Positions 2,961 through 47,132 of a stretch of DNA of 64,000 bases are shown here, one piece after another (position 1 is the stretch's first letter; each line of letters opens with the position of its first letter). This DNA is from Escherichia coli (lineage in GTDB: Bacteria > Pseudomonadota > Gammaproteobacteria > Enterobacterales > Enterobacteriaceae). Where the stretch lies: assembly GCF_024700885.2 (NCBI RefSeq), contig NZ_CP117016.1; one strand, given 5' to 3'. The translations under genes and the position numbers were made by a program. Under the pieces are notes generated by a model, which did not search any database, had not been told where the DNA came from, and was given only the letters and a program-made list of their open reading frames with translations.

Positions 2961-3353
2961 TTATTTCTGCAAATGAGTGACCCGAACGACGGCCGGAGCG
3001 CTTTTCTTATCCAGACTTCCGCTAATGTTGATCAGCTGGTCCGGCTGAACTTCTCGTCCATCAAAGACTGCCGCAGGAATAACAACATTAATTTCACCGC
3101 TCTTATCGCGAAAAACGTAACGGTCCTCTCCTTTGTGAGAAATCAAATTACCGCGTAGTGAAACCGAAGCGCCATCGTGCATTTTTTTTGCGAAATCAAC
3201 GGTCATTTTTTTTGCATCATCGGTTCCGCGATAGCCATCTTCTATTGCATGAGGCGGCGGTGGCGCTGCATCCTGTTTTAATCCGCCCTGGTCATCTGCC
3301 AACGCATAAGGCATGACAAGAAAACTTGCTAATACAATGGCCTGAAATTTCAT
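2961..3353 (-). CDS. ydeI: Periplasmic OB-fold (BOF family) protein YdeI
   Basis: 130-aa ORF with signal peptide [19 protein letters not shown]. Synteny fits. Confidence 0.85.
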
Positions 3354-3595
3354 ACTGACTCCTTAATTGCGTTTGGTTTGACTTATTAAGTCTGGTTGCT
3401 ATTTTTATAATTGACAAATAAGAATACTGCCAATTGTTATAAGGCATTTAAAATCAGGCAACTAGCTGTCAAATATTCAGAGAATTTTACTCACTAAAGT
3501 AAGAAGAAGATTAAAGAGTCTTAAACATATTTCAGAACAATCAGATTTATAAATTTGAAAATTATTATAACGGAAGGGTATACAAAAAAAGTAAT

Positions 3596-10752: not shown

Positions 10753-10809
10753 AATGGTTATCTCTAAAAAAGAGGTAAGATGCGTACTACTTACTCGCCG
10801 TTATTGGTA

Positions 10810-11829
10810 TTATTCAGAAAAAGTGAGTAAGACTTTGCAGCAATGCTTTTGATCCTGTTCAAATAAACTAATGGCATCAGCAACATGCTGGAAATCAAAC
10901 GTATGGGTAATTAATTTTTCTGGTTTAATTAACCCTTTACTTAACCAGTCGATAACGACCGGGAATTTATTTGCATTTAAGCGTGAAGAGAAAATAGAGA
11001 GTTCTTTTCCGGTAATTCCTTGCTGAATCACTTCAGACGGTTCACTGGAGAAGCCCATCAATACAATACGTGCCGCTGGAGAAGCCAGCGTTACGGCCTC
11101 TTTCAGGATAGAAGGATGACAAGCCGCATCGATAATTAATGTCGGCTTTATGCCTTTTTCAGCGAAAATCTCGCCAAGCGGTGTCTGGCTGTTATTAATC
11201 GCCCAGTCAGCCCCGCTCTCTTTCGCTTTTTCCAGTCGTTCATCAATGCGATCGGCAACAATCACATTTTTAACGTTATAGACGCCTTTTAATACCTGAA
11301 CGATCGTCAGGCCGATTGGACCGGCACCGTAAACCAGAACGGTATCATTTTCAGTCGGTTGACCATGACCGGTTACGTTAGCCGCAATGGTAAAAGGTTC
11401 GATCATCACCGCATATTGATCGGCCACTGCTTCAGGAATTTTCCACGCATTTTTTGCCGGAACCACGGCATATTCACTGAAACCACCGTCAGCGTGCACA
11501 CCTAATACAGCCAGTGTCGTACAAACGTTCGGCTTACCTATAGAGCACGGATAGCAATGCCCACAGCTGACCACCGGATCGACAGCAACGCGTTCACCGA
11601 CTCTGGCGCTTTCCACGCCTTCACCCACTGCATCAATGACGCCAAAGAATTCATGTCCAATGACGCGCGGATATTTCGCAAAAGGATTATGCCCACGATA
11701 AATATGGCTATCTGAACCACAAATCCCGGCAAGTTTCACTTTTACTCGTACTTCACCCGCTGACGGGGTGGGTATTTCACGTTCGATAATTGCCAGTTGA
11801 TTCGGTTTTTCAATTAAAATGCTTTTCAT
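10810..11829 (-). CDS. rspB: Zn-dependent dehydrogenase RspB
   Basis: GHEFFG and the GxGxxG motif are present. The start was set at MKSILIEKP, giving 339 aa. Confidence 0.9.
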   Translation of the reverse strand: MKSILIEKPNQLAIIEREIPTPSAGEVRVKVKLAGICGSDSHIYRGHNPFAKYPRVIGHEFFGVIDAVGEGVESARVGERVAVDPVVSCGHCYPCSIGKPNVCTTLAVLGVHADGGFSEYAVVPAKNAWKIPEAVADQYAVMIEPFTIAANVTGHGQPTENDTVLVYGAGPIGLTIVQVLKGVYNVKNVIVADRIDERLEKAKESGADWAINNSQTPLGEIFAEKGIKPTLIIDAACHPSILKEAVTLASPAARIVLMGFSSEPSEVIQQGITGKELSIFSSRLNANKFPVVIDWLSKGLIKPEKLITHTFDFQHVADAISLFEQDQKHCCKVLLTFSE

Positions 11830-31991: not shown

Positions 31992-32037
31992 TTTAATTAA
32001 ATAATTAACACCGCAAAAAGTGCCAAAAATCGCAAAA

Positions 32038-32060
32038 TGACTACACCAGTGACTACACCG
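32038..32060 (+). repeat. 23-bp arm repeat TGACTACACCAGTGACTACACCG (left arm)
   Basis: A perfect copy lies at 47068..47090 in the same orientation. It is internally a tandem GACTACACC x2. Similarity continues for about 10 more bp (TCG[G/T]TGCAC). Confidence 0.85.
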
Positions 32061-32077
32061 TTCGGTGCACTGTATGA

Positions 32078-32102
32078 AACAACGTGGAACAAATAGACAC
32101 AA
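32078..32102 (+). repeat. 10-bp-phased (A/C)ACAA array, left arm (3 units)
   Basis: AACAA at 32078 and 32088, CACAA at 32098. Confidence 0.7.
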
Positions 32103-32984: not shown

Positions 32985-34646
32985 TTACACCCCGCTAAAT
33001 TCTTCCAGTTTCTGGCGGTGGCTGTCGCTTATATCAAAAGCAAAATCCTCATGCTCTGCCTGGAATGTACCAAACGCCATCAGCGCCGCCACGCTCGGGT
33101 CTATCTTGTTCGGTGATTTTTTCTTGTTCGGCTTGATATTGGCGTTCGCGTCACTCTGCATCACGACGTTACTCATCGACCAGGACAACACCGGATCGCC
33201 ACGATGCACAATCACCCTGCGGTTAACAAAAACTTCGAACGATTTCGCCGCCGGACTGAATCTGAGGTAGGTTTGCGGGAACGGCTCCACCTCAAAACCT
33301 GCCCCCTGTAATTGCGTTCTGAGATGCGTGGCGTTCCACGTATCAAAGCCCACCAGCCTGATATTAAATTTCTCCGCGTCCTGCATGATGTCATCTCTGA
33401 TCCGGTCGTAATCAATGCAGTCGCCAGGCGTTGTGCGTATCCAGCCTGCTTTAGCCCACTGACGATAGATGGCGCGGTTTTTATTGGCGGGGTTCTGTAG
33501 CTGAAATTCCGGCAGATAGTGACGGGAAACCAGCATAATGGTTTTACCGACCGGAAAGGCATAGCACACGCTGGAAATATCGCTGGTTGATGATAAGTCC
33601 AGCCCCGCGTAACACTCCTGGCCGTGTAAATCTTCCTCCGTGAACGTTCCGGCACACTCAGCCCATGCGCCGTTACCCATCCACGGGGTAGCCCCCTGGC
33701 ACCAGATATTAAATCGCTTTGTCATCATCTCCACCCACTGCGACGGAATACCCCGCGCTTTCTGGATGGTTGAGGCCAGTTTTTCACGATCGACGGAAAC
33801 ATCAATATTAGGGTTCGCCTTTATCCACATCGCCGGATCATCAACCTCGTTTTCGTCGTCCAGTTCGTAAATCAGTACAAAAATTGAATCGTTAACCTCT
33901 TCGCCGTCCAGGATCTGGCAGCAATAATCATAGTGCTGCTTACAGGCTGAAACGACGTTGCTGCCTGATGTGGTAATGGCAAATAACAGCCCTTCGGGAC
34001 GTGCGCCCATCCCCAGCTCAAGCGCGGAATAAACGCCGTTATCGGGGTGCAAGTGGTATTCGTCCACGATGGAAAGGCTGGGGTTTGTTCCCTCGATGGT
34101 TGCCGCTTTTGCTGCCAGCGGCTTTAACAGGCTGTTGCTTTTCGGGTGTATCACCTTATGCGCCTGAATATTCACCCGCCTGCGTAACGGTCGGGATAAA
34201 AGGCACATCTGACGCGCATCATCAAAGACGATCCGCGCCTGGTCACGGCTCACCGCTGCGGTGTAGATATCCTGCTGACCGTTCTCCATAATCAGAAACC
34301 AGTTAGCCAGAATCGCGGCGGTCGTGGATTTCGCATTTTTGCGCGGCACTTCGATAAAGGCGCTCGTGTATTTGCGCCGTCCGGTGGCCTTAACCTTAAA
34401 GCCGAGGATGCACGCAAAGGCGAACTGCTGCCACGGCTCCAGCTCAATGGGTCTGCCACGCATCGGTCCTTTTACGTGCGGGCACACCCTGGAAAAGGCA
34501 ATAAACCGCTCCACAACCTCACGATCGAACGTGTAAAGGGGGCTTTTAAGGTCCGAAAAGTACCGTTTAACGGCCTGTTTCAGCCGTTTACAGGCCGGAA
34601 TTTTGCCCGTTTTTACGTCTTCTGCGTACTTATTCCAGGCGGTCAA
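32985..34646 (-). CDS. terL: Terminase large subunit (Terminase_1-type)
   Basis: 553 aa with an ATPase region (VPRKNAKST Walker A-like, IVDEYH Walker B) and a C-terminal nuclease. The TTG start overlaps the terS 3' end and has SD gagga. Confidence 0.85.
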   Translation of the reverse strand: MTAWNKYAEDVKTGKIPACKRLKQAVKRYFSDLKSPLYTFDREVVERFIAFSRVCPHVKGPMRGRPIELEPWQQFAFACILGFKVKATGRRKYTSAFIEVPRKNAKSTTAAILANWFLIMENGQQDIYTAAVSRDQARIVFDDARQMCLLSRPLRRRVNIQAHKVIHPKSNSLLKPLAAKAATIEGTNPSLSIVDEYHLHPDNGVYSALELGMGARPEGLLFAITTSGSNVVSACKQHYDYCCQILDGEEVNDSIFVLIYELDDENEVDDPAMWIKANPNIDVSVDREKLASTIQKARGIPSQWVEMMTKRFNIWCQGATPWMGNGAWAECAGTFTEEDLHGQECYAGLDLSSTSDISSVCYAFPVGKTIMLVSRHYLPEFQLQNPANKNRAIYRQWAKAGWIRTTPGDCIDYDRIRDDIMQDAEKFNIRLVGFDTWNATHLRTQLQGAGFEVEPFPQTYLRFSPAAKSFEVFVNRRVIVHRGDPVLSWSMSNVVMQSDANANIKPNKKKSPNKIDPSVAALMAFGTFQAEHEDFAFDISDSHRQKLEEFSGV

Positions 34647-38167: not shown

Positions 38168-39325
38168 TTAATCGTCGTCCTGTGGCAGTTCCAGAATCTT
38201 GATCGCGTTCGAATCCACCACGCCACCGCCTAAATATTTCTGCGTGAAAATTTTGATGAAGCCCGGCTCTGTGAGGTTGTCCGGTCTGGTGCGAACACCT
38301 GTTTCGTGATCAACAATGTAGTAACCGCGTTTGAAGTCACCCAGGGCAATAACGTTATCCGGCATAAACTCCAGATATTCGACCGGAAGGCCCAGTAACG
38401 TATCAGGATCACCCGCCTGTAAACGGTCGCGCCAGATGTAATCACCGTTCGCGTTCTTCACCTTCTGAAGTTTTGCCGCCGTCGTGGAGTTAACCACCCA
38501 GACCGCGTTTTTGCGGTATTTTTTACGTAATGCAAATTTCAGGTCGATCAGCGGGTCCGCAGATGTCCACGCCAGAGATTCGGAAGGTTTAATTACCTGC
38601 AACGTACCAAAATCACGCTCTTTGTCGTTCTTCTCTGCACGGGGTACGGATAAAAAGCCTTTTGCTTTTTTGTCACCGTCGCCCACAACCAGATCGCTTT
38701 CTTCGGTTTCCGTGAAGTTGTCGCCAATCTCGCCCGTCAGCCATGAAAGGATGTCCACATCGGAAAAATCCACGATTTCCTGCGTGGTGCGCGGGTACGC
38801 ATAGACCGGATACAGCTTAATGCTCACCTCGTTAATCTGCGGGGTGCTGGTCTGTTCGCGTGCCTTACCCTCTTCACCGTGGTTAACGGTCGCACCGCCA
38901 GCGGAAACAAGCTGCTTAAACTCGTTGCTGCTGATTTTCTTCACGGTACAGATGCGGCGCATGGTGGATTCATCCGTCAGCATTCGCATGATTTCGGTGT
39001 TCAGTTCGGGGATAACGGTATAACCACCATCAGCGGGAACGCCTGTACTTAATGCGCGGGTTTCACCTGTCAGAATGTAGTGACGTAGTTCGGCTGGGTC
39101 AGTGGTCTGACTGCTTTTACCTGGCTTGCTGCGCTCTTCGTCTGCAATGGCTTCAAGGCGGGAAATGTCTTTATCGAGGGATTCAGCTTTAGCGCGTAAT
39201 TCGTCAAATTTTGCGCCCTCAGCATCGTTAAGACTGCGGTTTTCTTTTTCCGCGTTCTCCAGCATGTCGCGCATCTGATTTTTAATGGCGGTTTTCTGCT
39301 GGCGTAATTCGATTATTCTCGGCAT
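38168..39325 (-). CDS. Major capsid protein, HK97 fold, with N-terminal delta/scaffold-like coiled coil
   Basis: 385 aa with a charged helical N-terminus (about 100 aa) followed by an HK97-family capsid body. Confidence 0.88.
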   Translation of the reverse strand: MPRIIELRQQKTAIKNQMRDMLENAEKENRSLNDAEGAKFDELRAKAESLDKDISRLEAIADEERSKPGKSSQTTDPAELRHYILTGETRALSTGVPADGGYTVIPELNTEIMRMLTDESTMRRICTVKKISSNEFKQLVSAGGATVNHGEEGKAREQTSTPQINEVSIKLYPVYAYPRTTQEIVDFSDVDILSWLTGEIGDNFTETEESDLVVGDGDKKAKGFLSVPRAEKNDKERDFGTLQVIKPSESLAWTSADPLIDLKFALRKKYRKNAVWVVNSTTAAKLQKVKNANGDYIWRDRLQAGDPDTLLGLPVEYLEFMPDNVIALGDFKRGYYIVDHETGVRTRPDNLTEPGFIKIFTQKYLGGGVVDSNAIKILELPQDDD

Positions 39326-39539
39326 AAAAAAAGTCCTGGGGTTAAGTAAGGAACTCCAGGACGCGGCAAAAACTCAACCGTTTTTCATAAGGAAATCAGC
39401 AATCGCACCGATCGTTTTCCCGCCTGGTAATGAATATTGGCGAGAACATTAACAGGCGGAAAAGTGGCCCCAGCGTCCTGGCACCACGGGCGAGAATAAT
39501 CATGATTCAGTTCGGGTAAAATATGCCGATCCGCTCAGT

Positions 39540-39565
39540 GAACAACGTGGAACAACCACGAACAA
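39540..39565 (+). repeat. Three GAACAA units at exact 10-bp spacing upstream of the capsid operon
   Basis: GAACAA at 39540, 39550 and 39560. Confidence 0.8.
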
Positions 39566-39583
39566 ATAATTTACAAAACATGA

Positions 39584-39606
39584 CAAAAAGCCGGATTGCT
39601 CCGGCT
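39584..39606 (-). terminator. Rho-independent terminator ending the early/replication operon
   Basis: The minus strand reads agccggagcaatccggct + ttttgt, immediately after the stop at 39613. Confidence 0.7.
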
Positions 39607-39612
39607 GTGTGA

Positions 39613-39894
39613 TTATCTGTCCTGGTAATTTCGCCATATTTCATTACCAGCACCATCCATACCCATTTCGGCATAAGTGCGATCGACCGCCTTTTTCAGG
39701 TCTCCGTAGTTATCCGGCGGCTCCGGTGGCCTCTGTGCCTTCCTGGAACATTCCAGCCGTCGCATCGTGATGTGATGCCGTTCCTTGTCTGTCTCCACCA
39801 GTTGCATGACTTCACCCCATCGCGCCGACGCTCTCCGGTAAAAGCCTTTCGCCTCCAGTTCTTCCGCTATGCGGTCATGTACCATCGTCCCCAC
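39613..39894 (-). CDS. PerC-like transcriptional activator (candidate)
   Basis: 93 aa. IAEELEAKGFYRRASARWGEVM matches the (L/F)(W/Y)RRAxxRWxEV motif I recall for the PerC/Pch family. Not verified by search. Confidence 0.5.
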   Translation of the reverse strand: MGTMVHDRIAEELEAKGFYRRASARWGEVMQLVETDKERHHITMRRLECSRKAQRPPEPPDNYGDLKKAVDRTYAEMGMDGAGNEIWRNYQDR

Positions 39895-39897
39895 CCC

Positions 39898-40308
39898 TCA
39901 GAACGGAATATCATCACCGTAAGGGTCATCGCCTCCCGCTGGTGGCTGATTACCCTGTGTGCCTGTGGTCTTGCGTCGGCTCCCACCAGGACGTGCCGCA
40001 CGGGCACTGATTACGCTGTCTGCAATAACCTGATAACCCTGCCGCGTTTCCCCGTTCTGTCCGGTCCACTGGCTGACCTGCATCGTGCCGGATACGCTGG
40101 CAACGTCGCCTTTTTGATGTTTAGCCAGGAAGTCGGCCTGCTTACCAAATGCGATGACCGATAGCCATAACGTCGCCTGTCCATCCTGTGCCTGGCTGCA
40201 TGGCAGCGATACCGCCATACGCGCCAGCGTCATCGGTGTACCCTTGCTGGTCTGTTTTACCTGCGGGTCGTCCACCAGCCGCCCGTAAGCTGCTATCTGT
40301 GCTGTCAT
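39898..40308 (-). CDS. ssb: Single-stranded DNA-binding protein
   Basis: 136 aa with an OB-fold N-terminus, a Gly/Pro-rich linker and the acidic tip DDIPF. Confidence 0.88.
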   Translation of the reverse strand: MTAQIAAYGRLVDDPQVKQTSKGTPMTLARMAVSLPCSQAQDGQATLWLSVIAFGKQADFLAKHQKGDVASVSGTMQVSQWTGQNGETRQGYQVIADSVISARAARPGGSRRKTTGTQGNQPPAGGDDPYGDDIPF

Positions 40309-40583: not shown

Positions 40584-40632
40584 ATTTATTTTTACCCCCT
40601 CGTTTAAAAAGTTTTGAGTTGTGCCTCCCCTT

Positions 40633-40855
40633 GTCTACCTTATCTACCTTAGTGGCCCTCATACCAGTAATGGCGCGGCTTTCAGCGGGGTAGAGTGCTT
40701 TTATCCACTATCTACCCCGTGTCTACCTCCCTGTCTGATTCAGGTAAAATCAGGTAGAGAGGGTAGATAGTGGGTAGACAGTAAAAAAAGGTTATCTACC
40801 TAACTTAATGCACTGAATTAAATGTATTTTTCTTTACTCAGGTAGACAGGGTAGA
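40633..40855. repeat. Iteron cluster / candidate island replication origin
   Basis: 11 copies of the hexamer GGTAGA/TCTACC. TCTACC starts at 40634, 40644, 40711, 40722 and 40795. GGTAGA starts at 40689, 40753, 40762, 40773, 40841 and 40850. They flank an AT-rich stretch (40801-40840) directly downstream of the primase stop. Confidence 0.75.
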
Positions 40856-40871
40856 CAGCAATTACAAAAAA

Positions 40872-42626
40872 TTATAAAAACGCGTCGCACTCGTCTGTTG
40901 TTATTGCGTTAGTCTGCGTTACTCCCTTAACTTTCCGCGTAATATATTCATGTCCGTAAACTTTCGCGGCTGGCTTCATAGCCTTGCCAAAGTCATTTAC
41001 GTTTAGCGGTTTGCTCCTGCCTGCGTACGCCATAAACGCCAGATAGACGCGGTAAAGGCTGTTTCTGGTCGTGTACTTCACTGAATCGCCACCGCCGCCC
41101 ATCATCAGGCCGCGTGCTTCCTCCAGAAAATTCAGGAACTGGCAAAACTCAATAACCGGATCCGTCTGTTGCTTTATTGCCAGAGCTTCATCACCGTCAC
41201 GCTGTTCCAGTAGTAAAGCCCGTGCCTTCTCAGGGTCGGTAAAGTTCGCCAGCAATCGGCGGATAATGACAGGGATTTCAGCCGCGATCTTTTCCGGTAG
41301 CTCCCTGTCTTTTTCGGCCTCACTGACGATATTGTCGAAACGGAAAATCACGCGACGACGTGCCACACCTCCGGCCCGTTCGGTGAATATCATCGGGTTA
41401 TTGTTGGTCGCCAGCACCACCGCCCTGATTACCGCCGTGAAACGCTTTTCGTATTTCGGGTTAATTTCCACGGGGTCACCGCCCGTGATTTTCTTGATGC
41501 CCGTTCCTTCGCCTGTATATTTCGGCTGGTCAGCCAGGACGATAAGACGACTCCCGACAACCTGCGCACGTCCACCAGCATCATCAAGCGATGTCATTTC
41601 AGCGCTTACCGTGTTCTGTTTCCCTGCCAGAAGGCTGGCTATGTGTGTGAATGTACTTTTACCGCTCCCGCCGTCTCCGGTGGCCTCAATAAACATCTGC
41701 CAGTCGTACCGGTTCGCCATAATCATGTACAGCGCGGCACATATACGCATCATCTTGCGCGGGTCTTTTCCGGCTGCGTGCTCAAGCCATTTATGAAAGT
41801 TTGGCGCGTTATCGCGGATGTTCTCCCCTGGTGCTGGTGGCGTGTACTCAATGCCGTTGTGCGTGGTGATCCAGTTCTCCGGCGTGTGCGGGGAAAATTC
41901 CCCCGTTTTCAGGTCAAGCGCACCATTGGCGAACGGCAACAAATCGCCGGACGGCTCGCCCATTGGTTCGGCAATAACTTTTAACGCTTCCACGGCGTTA
42001 TTGATTACGCGCTTGCTGAAAGTGGCCCTGTGCTCTGAATAGATCGCCACCATTTCGCGGCTAAGTTCCATTGTGCTGACCGGACACCATACCCCGCCGC
42101 GCCATACGTGAACGATTTCACTTTCAGGATGTACGCAAACGCCATCAAAGCGATCGGCAAGCAGTTGCGCGCGCTCACTGTCCGCCATCTGCGAAAGTTG
42201 CGCCTTTTGCTTTACCGGAAGCTCAATGACCAGACCATCAGAAAGATTCTGGCGCTCACGGGCCAGATATTCGCGCCAGTTCTCCACCTTCTGACCGTGC
42301 ATACCATCAGGGTAAAAATTTGCATCCTGTACGCCTGCCGCCGCCAGCTTCTGACCAATCGCCTTTATCATTACTGGCGCAAGATATCCGGCCCTGAATA
42401 TGCGCACGGATTTTCTGCCTTCCGGCACAATTTGCAGCTTATCCAGTTCGGATAACTGCTGCTCCCCAAGCCACACAGGAGGCTCATTATCTCCGGCCAT
42501 ACGCGCGTCATGTTCCTGCCATTGTTTTGCGTGTGACCAGGCATCACTACCCGCAAAAATAATGACTTCTGTTTCTTTGTGTTTTATGCCGCGTGACTGC
42601 TGTTTTACGTTCGGTGCCAGTTTCAT
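40872..42626 (-). CDS. P4-family primase/helicase (pri-rep)
   Basis: 584 aa with Walker A GDGGSGKST and Walker B LIVLADQP. The C-terminal architecture is D5/P4-alpha-like. Confidence 0.82.
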   Translation of the reverse strand: MKLAPNVKQQSRGIKHKETEVIIFAGSDAWSHAKQWQEHDARMAGDNEPPVWLGEQQLSELDKLQIVPEGRKSVRIFRAGYLAPVMIKAIGQKLAAAGVQDANFYPDGMHGQKVENWREYLARERQNLSDGLVIELPVKQKAQLSQMADSERAQLLADRFDGVCVHPESEIVHVWRGGVWCPVSTMELSREMVAIYSEHRATFSKRVINNAVEALKVIAEPMGEPSGDLLPFANGALDLKTGEFSPHTPENWITTHNGIEYTPPAPGENIRDNAPNFHKWLEHAAGKDPRKMMRICAALYMIMANRYDWQMFIEATGDGGSGKSTFTHIASLLAGKQNTVSAEMTSLDDAGGRAQVVGSRLIVLADQPKYTGEGTGIKKITGGDPVEINPKYEKRFTAVIRAVVLATNNNPMIFTERAGGVARRRVIFRFDNIVSEAEKDRELPEKIAAEIPVIIRRLLANFTDPEKARALLLEQRDGDEALAIKQQTDPVIEFCQFLNFLEEARGLMMGGGGDSVKYTTRNSLYRVYLAFMAYAGRSKPLNVNDFGKAMKPAAKVYGHEYITRKVKGVTQTNAITTDECDAFL

Positions 42627-42922
42627 TTTTTACCCCTGAATCCGTTAATCATGGTTTTCAGCTTCTGGATGTTTGCCCGTGCCCTGGCGTTGCTGGTGGA
42701 CACGTTATGCGGCGCGGTCTGTACCAGAGAAAAATCACGCCGGAACTGATAAACAGGCATCACGCAATCATATTCGTAACCTTCACGGCGGTAGGTTACG
42801 CGCCGTTCTTCCACGCCCTTAATCATTACCGTGCCGCCGTACTGGTCGCGGTAAATATCGCCGCGCGTAAATTTAGGGTGAGTGTTGCCACTGGCAGTTA
42901 AGCCAGAATATTTAAGTTTCAT
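42623..42922 (-). CDS. Hypothetical protein (99 aa)
   Basis: SD ggaga. ATGA overlap with the primase start. Confidence 0.55.
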   Translation of the reverse strand: MKLKYSGLTASGNTHPKFTRGDIYRDQYGGTVMIKGVEERRVTYRREGYEYDCVMPVYQFRRDFSLVQTAPHNVSTSNARARANIQKLKTMINGFRGKK

Positions 42923-45258: not shown

Positions 45259-45447
45259 TTAATGAACTGCCTTGCAGCTATCCTTCCAGGCCAGAACCTC
45301 GGATAAAGACCAGCCAACGGAACGACCGCCAAGTTTACGACGTGATGGGAATTGTCCGGCCTTTTCCAGGCGGTAGCGACACGTACGGCTAAGGCCGGTT
45401 AGTTTTTCGCATTCTTTTTCACGTATAAACCGATCAGTGCTTAACAC
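45259..45447 (-). CDS. alpA: AlpA-family regulator / excisionase-type HTH
   Basis: FIREKECEKLTGLSRTCRYRLEKAGQFPSRRKLGGRSVGWSLSEVLAW is the typical AlpA/Phage_AlpA motif. The favoured start is the GTG at 45447, 5 nt after SD aagggggg. The track ORF extends to a TTG at 45528. Confidence 0.8.
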   Translation of the reverse strand: MLSTDRFIREKECEKLTGLSRTCRYRLEKAGQFPSRRKLGGRSVGWSLSEVLAWKDSCKAVH

Positions 45448-45720
45448 TATTGCCCCCCTTTCGTTTCTTAAAGAGTCATCAGGTGTCTTATTGTGTCGTA
45501 TTGTTCCCGCTAGAGTGATGAATGGCAAATACTGAGGATGTATGATTTACAGAAAATGAAACAGTAAGAATAAAATTTTTTAAATTCATGTTAATACAAA
45601 GGCATAAAATATTGTTCCATGCCTTTTTTCTCGCTCTTTAAAGAGTGATTCGCTAGTGTACAAAAAACCAGTAACGCATTAAAAATCAGCTACTTATAAA
45701 TCCGTACGCTTTTTCGCCTC

Positions 45721-45765
45721 TTGTTCGTAGTTGTTCCACATTGTTGCTCATTGTTGCACGTTGTA
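45721..45765 (-). repeat. Five TTGTT/TTGTA units at exact 10-bp spacing (inverse orientation of the GAACAA arrays), int-alpA intergenic
   Basis: Units start at 45721, 45731, 45741, 45751 and 45761. Confidence 0.8.
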
Positions 45766-45812: not shown

Positions 45813-47042
45813 TTATTTTCTTCTGGCTACGGGTAGCGTGGTTACGTTTTCATGTGTTCCCGCCAGTATCCCTAACCGCTCCGTCCACATATCCAGCGCA
45901 TTGCGTTTCGCATCCAGATAACGGGAATGATTATAAACTCGCTGCATTCCTGGCATCTGGTGGCCTGTAAGCTGCTCCACGACATGCGGATCAACGCCTA
46001 AATCGTTCAGCATGGTTGTAAAGGTGCGCCGGATGTCATGCAGTGACCAGTGAGGGTGATTAAGCCTCCTGTACGCTAATCTTCCATACTGCGATACGCT
46101 GGCCTCCTGTTTCACTTCCCCCAGCAATAAGCCCGTGTGCCTGTTCTGCTCCACCAGCTGCGTGACGAACGGCAGGATCGCTTCCGGTATGGGCCGGAAT
46201 ATTGCGACCTTCGTTTTGCTGTGCTCCTTCGGAACGGTCCATAGCATTTCCGTAAAATCCCACTCCCCGATCTCCGATAACCTCAGTTCTACCGTTCTGG
46301 CTCCGAAGACAATCAGGAGGCGGATTAACGCGACGTAGTAAGGGGAGAATATTTTTTTGTCCAGTGCCTGCAATAATTCGCCAAGTTCTTTGTTACTTAA
46401 GACACGTTCGCTTATATCCGGTTTTTTCCCAACGTCCGCAACGTTCAGATCGTCCAGAACGTTGCTGATTGCATAGCGCCGCCTACGGCAGAACTTAAGC
46501 GCCTGTTTGCACGCCTGTAGCACGAATCCGGCAGTAACAGGCGTTCGCTTTGCCACCTGGTCAAAACAGGCCAGCCAGTGCCGTAGCTCGCATTTATCCA
46601 GCGGCATAGCACCAATCTGCTGTATTACGTGATTATTAAGTCGCCTTTTCAGGGCGATATAATCCACGCGGTTTTCCTTTACGTAATACTCAAGCCAGTA
46701 GGTGAGCGCATCGCCAACCGTTACGGGCTTTAACGCTTCCTGTACGGTGTAATTCATCTCATGACGTGGATTTTTCCCCTCAGCCAGCCATGTGCGACAC
46801 TGTGCGGCTTTTTCCCTGGCTGCTTTCAGGCTCAGATCAGGATAACTTCCCAGCTTAATGCGTTCGGGTCGTGTCTCCCTTCCCGTTCCGGCCCTGTATG
46901 TGAAATACCAGGTCAATTTCCCTGATGTTAAATATTTCACGCTCAGGTTTCCGCCATCACTATAAAACGTGTTTTTCTCCGCTGGCTTACCATGAAGTTT
47001 CCTTAGCAAGGTATCGCTCAGTTTGTTCATTGCTCTGCTCAC
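45813..47042 (-). CDS. int: P4-type tyrosine integrase (DUF4102 arm-binding N-terminus + catalytic core)
   Basis: 409 aa, with either a GTG at 47042 or an ATG at 47030 (MNKLSDTLLRKL). The N-terminus is GKLTWYFTYR...LGSYPDLSLKAAR. Catalytic motifs HDIRRT and Y in VYNHSRY are present. Confidence 0.9.
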   Translation of the reverse strand: MSRAMNKLSDTLLRKLHGKPAEKNTFYSDGGNLSVKYLTSGKLTWYFTYRAGTGRETRPERIKLGSYPDLSLKAAREKAAQCRTWLAEGKNPRHEMNYTVQEALKPVTVGDALTYWLEYYVKENRVDYIALKRRLNNHVIQQIGAMPLDKCELRHWLACFDQVAKRTPVTAGFVLQACKQALKFCRRRRYAISNVLDDLNVADVGKKPDISERVLSNKELGELLQALDKKIFSPYYVALIRLLIVFGARTVELRLSEIGEWDFTEMLWTVPKEHSKTKVAIFRPIPEAILPFVTQLVEQNRHTGLLLGEVKQEASVSQYGRLAYRRLNHPHWSLHDIRRTFTTMLNDLGVDPHVVEQLTGHQMPGMQRVYNHSRYLDAKRNALDMWTERLGILAGTHENVTTLPVARRK

Positions 47043-47067
47043 GTTTTACCCCCTCTTTACGAAAAAG

Positions 47068-47090
47068 TGACTACACCAGTGACTACACCG
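47068..47090 (+). repeat. 23-bp arm repeat TGACTACACCAGTGACTACACCG (right arm)
   Basis: Perfect copy of 32038..32060, in the same orientation. Confidence 0.85.
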
Positions 47091-47108
47091 ATCGTTGCAC
47101 AAAGGGCT

Positions 47109-47132
47109 ACAACGTGAAACAAGCTGGAACAA
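47109..47132 (+). repeat. 10-bp-phased ACAA array, right arm (3 units, a 4th at +12)
   Basis: ACAA at 47109, 47119 and 47129, and another at 47141. Confidence 0.7.

Follow-up and report, generated by a model that had tools for sequence, protein, structure and literature searches.

A conserved predicted promoter and structured leader at the 5' boundary of the packaging operon of capsid-forming satellite islands

How does a phage satellite that makes its own capsids control when, and how strongly, its capsid genes are expressed? Phage-inducible chromosomal islands of the capsid-forming kind (cf-PICIs) make capsids themselves and borrow only the tails of helper phages, and the searchable literature holds no description of how cf-PICI capsid synthesis is timed and limited. 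The question is raised by a 64-kb stretch of Escherichia coli DNA (hereafter the window), which holds a cf-PICI of the EcCIEDL933 family, inserted in tqsA, spanning ~31.96 to 47.22 kb and read on the minus strand. Within it, a gap of 287 bp (39326-39612) separates an open reading frame (ORF) of the PerC family from an HK97-type capsid gene. An earlier note had read this gap as a module boundary that holds a terminator, a triple repeat array and a hairpin sequestering the Shine-Dalgarno (SD) sequence, and had proposed the PerC-like protein as a natural late activator. All three elements are present and the early operon does close at the terminator; judged from sequence comparison, the gap is a fixed, conserved regulatory 5' boundary of the cf-PICI packaging operon. 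The island and its genes are already known, and the control region is a member of a known satellite family, built of known kinds of element; its conserved promoter and leader architecture appears to be undescribed in the searchable literature, where we found no description of a packaging-module promoter or leader. In the direction of transcription, the elements are:

39613..39894, minus strand: PerC-family (PchE-like) gene, last of the early/replication operon; RefSeq start 39885; PF06069, E=4.6e-43
39583..39606, minus strand: intrinsic terminator closing the early operon; 7-bp stem AGCCGGA-GCAA-TCCGGCT (39606-39589), then TTTTTGT to 39583, giving a U5GU tail
39569..39577, minus strand: anchor TTTGTAAAT with invariant core GTAAAT, ~-82 to -90 from the predicted start
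39540..39565, minus strand: three TTGTTC repeats (plus strand: GAACAA), set exactly 10 bp apart at 39565-60, 39555-50 and 39545-40; candidate AlpA/Int docking site
39493..39520, minus strand: predicted sigma-70 promoter of the packaging operon; -35 TTTACC (39520-15), 16-bp spacer, -10 TATTCT (39498-93)
39464..39487, minus strand: 5' leader hairpin GUGGU-G-CCAG-GACG-CUGG-G-GCCAC, -13.4 kcal/mol; holds region 1, CCAGGACGC (39481-73)
39415..39463, minus strand: long middle hairpin, -19.5 kcal/mol, z=-5.0
39374..39413, minus strand: small hairpin (39394-39413), then the relic of a type-B capsid start, AUGAAAAACGGUUGA (39374-39388), to which the covariance model R1 (below) aligned the type-B AUGAAaAAA
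39326..39364, minus strand: region 2, GCGUCCUGG (39364-56), SD-occluding hairpin (39362-39333) and U7 (39332-26), directly before the capsid AUG (39325)
38168..39325, minus strand: HK97-family major capsid gene, which opens the packaging operon; PF05065, E=1.5e-61

Loci for comparison came from three sources: (i), one representative genome each of Shigella flexneri, Rosenbergiella, Citrobacter amalonaticus, Erwinia psidii and Gilliamella; (ii), 80 IMG/VR contigs retrieved by capsid homology; and (iii), 112 more retrieved by an exact 18-mer, TTTGTAAATTATTTGTTC. The total is about 150 related islands from several enterobacterial genera and uncultivated viral contigs. Of the 112 new IMG/VR hits, 96 have the 18-mer directly upstream of a cf-PICI capsid gene; most of the remaining hits are unrelated AT-rich sequence, continue too briefly downstream to be judged, or are recombinant, as is L173 (~10797-11190), where the array, the promoter and the first ~20 nt of a leader of the window's type run into the 3' part of a perC-like gene, an 80-aa gene coming next. 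Whatever gene lies beyond, the architecture upstream of the capsid gene is constant: anchor, three phased repeats, a variable spacer of 17-19 bp, promoter and leader. The GTAAAT anchor is found in nearly all cf-PICI loci examined. The sequence of the repeats is specific to the lineage (TTGTTC in E. coli-type islands, GTAC/TTTACC/ATTACC or GTCC/TTTCCGC/TTTAG elsewhere) while their 10-bp phasing is conserved, the window's repeat centres falling near -55.5, -65.5 and -75.5 and the anchor near -86 relative to the predicted start, all on the same helical face.

The terminator that insulates this block folds at -13.2 kcal/mol (z=-4.85; 0/200 shuffles equally stable). A scan for consensus terminators returned 3 sites against 2.6 expected in a 2.1-kb region, so the call rests on position and conservation and not on a pattern count: PerC-less relatives (L002) carry a different hairpin and T-run at the same position, and the terminator always lies within ~100 bp upstream of the -35 in the loci examined. 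A GC-rich stem-loop directly before a U-run, the predicted signature of an intrinsic terminator, is present at 39606-39583 and again at 39362-39326, the latter being absent from the scan list. Outside E. coli (L004 3930-4010, L005, L006 and many IMG/VR loci) the terminator sits between the phased repeats and the -35, for example as CCCCUGUCUCUGACGGGGG plus a U-run; these spacer terminators consist of a GC hairpin and a T-run, with compensatory changes in the stems between lineages. There the T-run provides the T's of the -35 and the repeats would be transcribed as 3' untranslated region.

Does the capsid operon have a promoter of its own? When 95 distinct upstream sequences are aligned at the leader start, 91-93 of them retain T-33, T-32 and T-31, 91 retain T-11, 93 A-10 and 92 T-6. 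This is the pattern, with its A-10/T-6 signature, expected of a sigma-70 promoter with a -35 of TTTAC(A), a -10 of TATnnT and a 16-bp spacer: both hexamers, a spacer within 16-18 bp and conservation of the key positions are all found, upstream of a predicted start that sequence features place around G39487. The separate promoter claimed in the earlier note is thus borne out by a -35/-10 pair conserved across the 95 sequences. The window promoter matches only 8/12 consensus positions, and the scan, with its threshold of 9/12, reported nothing promoter-like in the gap. Dependence of this promoter on an activator is plausible. The anchor was also considered as a sigma-70 element and discarded: read as a -35, TTGTAA lacks a -10 at 16-18 bp downstream in every lineage, and read as a -10, TAAATT varies between T, A and G at position 6, where T is required. 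We are confident, from these patterns and from the leader described next, that the capsid operon has its own promoter and a structured leader.

From G39487 to the AUG, the leader is 160 nt long and follows a three-hairpin plan (fold z=-4.4). Most other islands carry a leader of different sequence and equal plan, here called type B, the leader of the window being type A. Type-B leaders carry a homologous 5' hairpin, with compensatory changes and an invariant GACG loop, and a covariance model (R1), built from 24 type-B leaders, aligns it with that of the window. R1 retrieves 56 type-B leaders at 97-161 bits and, with its filters off, finds the window leader at 39487-39380 with 26 bits (E~1e-6 on a rough calibration); with default filters it misses the window leader and returns a weak match in the terL region (33477-33615, minus strand; 11.4 bits, E=0.22) that is probably spurious. 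No Rfam 15 family matched either type of leader, the best hits having E values of at least 0.08 and scores far under gathering. Across 51 distinct type-B leaders 95.3% of cells are paired, and covariation reaches 0.236 versus 0.107 in shuffles (0/500) and at most 0.068 in slid controls; compensatory pairs number 11/12 in helix 2 and 3/9 in helix 1. MAFFT followed by RNAalifold on whole leaders recovers helix 1 and the base of helix 2 only, because of misalignment. The relic AUGAAAAACGGUUGA of a type-B capsid start (MKK...) persists in the window as a four-codon ORF, MKNG*, ending 11 nt before the SD hairpin; type-A capsids start MPRII, and the variant L025 retains a four-codon frame, MKKR*.

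The last hairpin is the one with most bearing on capsid output. GUU/AAC pairs extend its stem GUCCUGG/CCAGGAC (39362-39333) inwards and close a loop of 8 nt (-14.1 kcal/mol, z=-4.0), AGGA lies in its 3' arm 8 nt before the AUG, and a U7 run that the earlier note had not mentioned follows directly. A 7-bp stem alone is near chance in 287 bp (about 0.26 expected by our own estimate), so support for this one comes from the related islands. Four different stems precede the AUG: GUCCUGG/CCAGGAC in type A, GGUUUC-A-CGU/ACGGAAACC in standard type B, CGUGUUGGUU/AACCAAUACG in the type B of E. coli, and CUGCAUG/CAUGCAG in L047. They share one geometry, a stem of 7-10 bp and a loop of 16-19 nt placed a few nt before the AUG, and the SD falls within the 3' arm in type A and standard type B, not in the type B of E. 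coli. The SD-bearing hairpin proposed in the earlier note is supported in that it is the minimum-free-energy state and has counterparts of equal geometry in other leader types. The U7 is confined to the type-A lineage, where a hairpin followed by U7 also resembles an attenuator; in the predicted fold the two together look like a terminator-like attenuator and a translational operator in one. A related design occurs elsewhere: in L063 (~2010-2050) and L073 (~3320-3358) alpA is preceded by GCUCUCG-N12-CGAGAGC, U7 and AUG, a hint that terminator read-through could gate alpA there.

What might open such a hairpin? In the window, CCAGGACGC, at the tip of the 5' hairpin with its GACG loop, is complementary to GCGUCCUGG, in the last hairpin's 5' arm. 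Type B has a counterpart, the long-range pairing AGACGUGA/UCACGUCU, type A being a different sequence solution, and in L080/L094 a U-A pair is replaced by G-C, one compensatory event. We hypothesize from the modelled folds that the CCAGGACGC/GCGUCCUGG alternative would free the SD and, in type A, block the terminator-like hairpin. This is reminiscent of SD-sequestering leaders and attenuators (lambda PR'-6S-tR', pyrBI-type), which are alike in having a promoter, a ~160-nt leader and a hairpin plus U-run before the first late gene; as in such systems, the SD lies in the 3' arm and an upstream segment is complementary to the 5' arm. Unlike them, the window leader has no Rfam match, its U7 is limited to type A and its alternative fold is the weaker one by 6-9 kcal/mol.

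Several observations count against a switching leader. The alternative pairing lies, as just said, above the minimum-free-energy fold, and its duplex has z-scores from -1.6 to -4.2, that of type A (-1.6) being unexceptional among shuffles. Helix 3, the SD hairpin, has 0/10 compensatory pairs within type B because it is nearly invariant there, so the evidence for the last hairpin rests on the comparison between types. In the type B of E. coli the SD is mostly unpaired, one lineage has a short, unstructured leader, and the 51-row alignment (A3) behind the covariation figures was fitted to the model structure and therefore favours it. With these points weighed, we lean, without great assurance, towards a regulatory, gating role for the leader. 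The earlier idea that the capsid operon is gated at both transcription and translation accordingly keeps its two cis-acting parts, the separate promoter and the SD hairpin, and loses PerC as the activator, for reasons given below.

Which protein, then, occupies the repeats? The TTGTTC triple pattern, with up to 3 mismatches, has 6 matches in the window versus 0.05 expected, and all 6 lie within the island. The features concerned are:

47042..45813, minus strand: int, from the island gene list
45259..45447, minus strand: alpA, encoding a 62-aa excisionase-like winged-helix regulator, the leading candidate for array binder; PF05930, E=5.4e-17
45711..45756, plus strand: inverted TTGTTC/TTGTTG array of 4-5 phased copies between int and alpA; 23/26 bases equal to the capsid array, spacers included
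47107..47132, minus strand: phased TTGTTC/TTGTTT/TTGTAG array in the left attachment (attL) arm, upstream of int; 20/26 bases equal to the capsid array
47067-47089, minus strand: second repeat class of the attL arm, GGTGTAGTCAC x2, following the attL array
32077..32102, minus strand: phased TTGTGT/TTGTTC/TTGTTT array in the right (attR) arm; 20/26 bases equal to the capsid array
32037-32059, minus strand: second repeat class of the attR arm, GGTGTAGTCA x2, following the attR array

Near-identical arrays at both att arms and between int and alpA point to AlpA (or Int) as the binder. Three or more direct repeats one helical turn apart, found also at att arms, are what recombination directionality factors (RDFs) bind, cooperatively and with low sequence discrimination (PMC7498355). 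A second function at promoters is not without precedent: the RDFs 186 Apl, P2 Cox and P4 Vis also regulate promoters (PMC7498355, which cites Saha et al. 1989 on Cox activation of prophage P4), and their operators resemble the window array in consisting of three or more short direct repeats, a helical turn apart, that recur at att and at a promoter. There are differences, since the window array lies upstream of the -35, in the position of an activator, while Apl and Cox operators mostly overlap promoters and repress, and since AlpA belongs to an RDF sequence family of its own (PF05930), distinct from Apl, Cox and Vis. AlpA is an excisionase-like winged-helix protein (PMC10803314) that activates PICI promoters (PMC6092414) and is needed for the induction of EcCIEDL933 (10.1101/2022.09.08.507074). 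Overexpression of alpA alone is reported to drive EcCIEDL933 reproduction and has been used for its purification (10.1101/2025.02.11.637232), which is compatible with a PerC step and requires none. AlpA sequence group I associates with GTTC-rich arrays, with exceptions and confounded by host phylogeny. A search of the accessible literature found no AlpA binding sites, and CP4-57 AlpA/intA of K-12 was rejected as an experimental link to GTTC repeats, the phased arrays being absent there and the AlpA divergent.

The RDF-like repeats and the AlpA literature are the reasons for ranking AlpA first, as a tentative candidate to which we give somewhat less than an even chance. Host factors or bent DNA at the array seem unlikely, Int, in a regulatory or a purely recombinational role, seems unlikely to a similar or slightly greater degree, and PerC is very improbable as the binder. 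The assignment to AlpA meets several difficulties: identical TTGTTC arrays occur with at least four AlpA alleles, group II included (L028, L030-32); L032 keeps the capsid array and lacks TTGTTC arrays in both att arms; the arrays upstream of alpA in group II islands (GTTCAT) differ from the capsid arrays there; and the AlpA of EcCICFT073 did not activate Pint (PMC6092414), although the window has int-proximal arrays. Given the several alleles and L032, a host factor, or a protein that binds with broad specificity, could be the binder. In non-E. coli islands the capsid-array motif was mostly not found elsewhere in the island. Group II AlpA islands (L070 2180-2420; L060 792-917; L064 2770-2910) carry 10-bp tandem runs, GCTGTTGAAT x7-8 and ACACGTAATG x3-5, and the same set has five phased GTTCAT repeats between int and alpA.

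On the whole we favour, by a small degree, a composite picture in which AlpA or Int binds the array to serve the capsid promoter and its leader. The reading to be taken most seriously against it, which we nevertheless hold to be unlikely, is that a host nucleoid protein (Fis, IHF, H-NS or Lrp) binds the array, or that the array acts as bent, UP-like DNA, tuning the promoter to host physiology. The GTAAAT core is indeed invariant across genera and across AlpA and Int alleles, and the type of repeat goes with the pool of hosts or islands, not with the lineage of leader or capsid. The sequence GTAAATTATTTGTTC, kept in most lineages, adds to this side, having what we take to be a Fis-like geometry (G-N13-C with an A/T-rich centre). 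Its conservation is asymmetric, with an invariant left half and a free right half, unlike a Fis dimer site, and the recurrence of 26-bp near-identical arrays, spacers included, at the att arms and near alpA argues for a protein of the recombination module.

The repeats could also be integrase arm-type sites, or relics of recombination at a junction where modules are exchanged, with no role in transcription. The motif borders both att arms in the manner of arm-type sites; in many islands this Int family comes with GTTC-type arrays upstream of int; the L173 recombinant is broken within the region; and type-A and type-B leaders share an identical array and diverge directly downstream of it. Against this, lineages that differ in repeat sequence conserve both the distance from array to -35 (17-19 bp) and the phasing; L032 combines a capsid array with arms that lack TTGTTC arrays; and the arm-restricted GGTGTAGTCAC x2 is the better candidate for an Int arm site. 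We find this reading improbable. Within the window, GGTGTAGTCA(C) occurs solely as a pair of adjacent copies per att arm, ~20 bp inward of the TTGTTY arrays; in attL the pair stops 24 bp short of the int start. Two repeat classes are arranged likewise in the arms of L073 and L085, where GTGCAGTCA x2 takes the corresponding position, and from their sequence and placement the GGTGTAGTCAC/GGTGTAGTCA repeats are candidates for Int arm-type sites.

A third possibility dispenses with the promoter as the main source of transcripts: the capsid operon would be expressed mainly by read-through from the early operon or by transcription from an upstream start, with a Q- or N-like antiterminator, of satellite or helper, overriding both the 39606 terminator and the 39362-39326 hairpin-U7. 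Two terminator-like structures do stand in series, the second directly before the AUG, and L063 and L073 have an equal hairpin-U7-AUG design before alpA. The arrangement is like that of lambda PR'-tR'. Against this, the two terminators enclose a predicted sigma-70 promoter whose conservation follows the expected pattern, the U7 is specific to type A, and alpA alone suffices without a helper (10.1101/2025.02.11.637232). The hallmarks of Q-like antitermination, a ring at the RNA exit channel and an element between -35 and -10, are not found here, the repeats lying upstream of the -35; and the antiterminator called AlpA in Pseudomonas offers no template, being Q-like with an N-terminal ring and a C-terminal helix-turn-helix (PMC9371919), whereas the island AlpA is a 62-aa PF05930 protein. 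We therefore give antitermination very little credence.

The PerC-like gene, finally, is a genuine family member. The profile search on which the earlier note had staked this identity gives a full-length PF06069 match of 145.8 bits versus a cut-off of 22.6, with residues 4-92 on profile positions 1-89 of 90; the identical sequence in E. coli FORC_069 is annotated as a PerC family regulator, and the ORF is orthologous to PchE of O-island 51 (OI-51)/CP-933C (PMC3378721). The gene thus shares with PerC/Pch of enteropathogenic and enterohaemorrhagic E. coli a full-length Pfam match and, with pchE, its position in OI-51 (PMC3378721). Its distribution does not make it the natural late activator: of 56 loci that have the anchor and 5 kb or more of flank upstream, 15 hold any PerC homologue; three full-length islands (L002, L028 and L029) among the 17 loci with a full TTGTTC x3 array have the identical array without PerC, so that PerC and its supposed target are not co-inherited; and in the O157 prototype an 80-aa gene, which the window island lacks, stands between pchE and the array. 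The slot directly upstream of the array is hypervariable, with at least 17 unrelated clusters (an 80-aa protein in 26 loci, PerC in 8, no ORF in 5, membrane or accessory ORFs in others), in line with a comparison of cf-PICIs that describes the regions flanking the packaging module as variable and expected to encode immune systems (10.1101/2025.02.11.637232). All 14 loci with a type-A leader carry a PerC homologue within ~1 kb upstream; they are one lineage, 95-100% identical, with PerC adjacent, so this is physical linkage and not functional evidence, and the PerC of the Shigella locus L003 is a 27-bit remnant. That the PerC-like protein turns on the capsid operon from the phased array is thus the alternative we consider least tenable, even though its gene is adjacent to and co-oriented with the capsid operon and PerC/Pch proteins activate promoters such as LEE1 (PMC3378721, PMC11773190).

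From this comparison, the PerC-like gene is probably an accessory passenger and not a dedicated switch of the capsid operon. Its place in a variable accessory slot makes cross-talk with the host a more likely role than control of satellite late genes; the PerC-like genes of EcCIEDL933 and EcCICFT073 are described, in the statement of PMC11773190 that cites Porter 2005, as having no effect on LEE1 fusions. The 80-aa protein of the slot matches no Pfam family and has the motif ...HHxF..L[ST]GE..A.N.EQ... (L002 5736-5978; L018 7556-7858; L208 7961-8185, O157). As 'cluster 0' it was considered for a universal late regulator and dropped, being present in 43/71 loci with at least 5 kb of flank and absent from the window. 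One E. coli cf-PICI lineage (L002 5209-5739, L033, L034) has, two genes upstream of its capsid leader, a gene of the ProQ/FinO family (RNA chaperones); with only these 3 loci, it too was set aside.

The rest of the island agrees with its place in the cf-PICI family. A 9-bp core, ATAACAGCA, bounds it at 47224-16 and 31965-57, with ~15.25 kb between cores. The early half reads int, alpA, Icd-like and small ORFs, DUF4222/RgdR-type, D5-type primase, a 92-aa ORF, single-stranded DNA-binding protein (SSB) and the PerC-family gene; the packaging half reads capsid, prohead protease, portal, head closure, connector, HNH, TerS and TerL. These include int, alpA, pri-rep and a packaging module, without tail or lysis genes, the content that defines a cf-PICI (size 10-15 kb by the same definition). 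A cos-site reading of the region was rejected on the gene order, HNH-[gap]-terS, and on knowledge of HNH-cos phages. PICI replication origins usually adjoin pri-rep; a non-coding gap of 288 bp lies at 40584-40871, downstream of the primase gene. Directly upstream of the primase, a 99-aa DUF4222 ORF with an RGD motif (42623-42922, minus strand) corresponds to RgdR, the OI-51-encoded regulator of LEE and motility (PMC3378721). Over 39200-39950, a stretch matched by 836/5426 complete E. coli genomes, 352 of them covering at least 80% of it, E. coli FORC_069 and the window are 100% identical. EcCIEDL933 itself (O-island 51/CP-933C/Sp7, O157:H7) has the same gene order and a PerC-to-capsid junction 95% identical to that of the window, and AlpA WP_000953272.1 is common to FORC_069 and O157 CP-933C; EcCIEDL933 is integrated at roxA-phoQ in O157, whereas the window island is at tqsA. 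It is induced by a helper via alpA and forms its own small capsids (10.1101/2022.09.08.507074).

Returning to the composite picture with AlpA or Int at the array, we build it on the observed sequence elements, their conservation, the covariation in helices 1 and 2 and the distribution of PerC; start site, binder, direction of regulation and switch, like every functional step, are inferred. The early transcript, AlpA-dependent and encoding replication functions, would stop at 39606-39583, just past the perC/pchE-like gene. The anchor and the three phased TTGTTC repeats (~-53 to -90) would serve the conserved, non-consensus promoter TTTACC-16-TATTCT: upon induction, the repeats may be occupied by one of the island's own proteins with a second activity at att, probably AlpA, the arm-binding domain of Int being the second candidate, and this protein would bend the DNA or recruit RNA polymerase to the moderate promoter at 39520-39493. 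Transcription starting near G39487 would yield the 160-nt leader of three hairpins, which in its default fold would hide the SD in the last hairpin, while U7 could stop a fraction of transcripts; with the SD paired and a U7 present, transcripts would by default be attenuated and/or poorly translated. Some input might then favour the 39481-73/39364-56 pairing, or open the hairpin otherwise, to allow high capsid output.

What the locus offers at once is a concrete map of a control region conserved in about 150 islands, comprising an insulating terminator, an anchor with phased repeats, a promoter and a covarying leader, and the comparison removes an attractive but misleading candidate, PerC/PchE. 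A bolder proposal, for which we see an outside chance, is that the leader, with its GACG-loop 5' hairpin, covarying middle hairpin and SD/terminator hairpin, is an uncatalogued two-state RNA element flipped by a satellite or helper factor, with AlpA doubling as late activator through the repeats. If this were true, one small protein and one RNA switch would couple excision, late transcription and capsid translation in these satellites.

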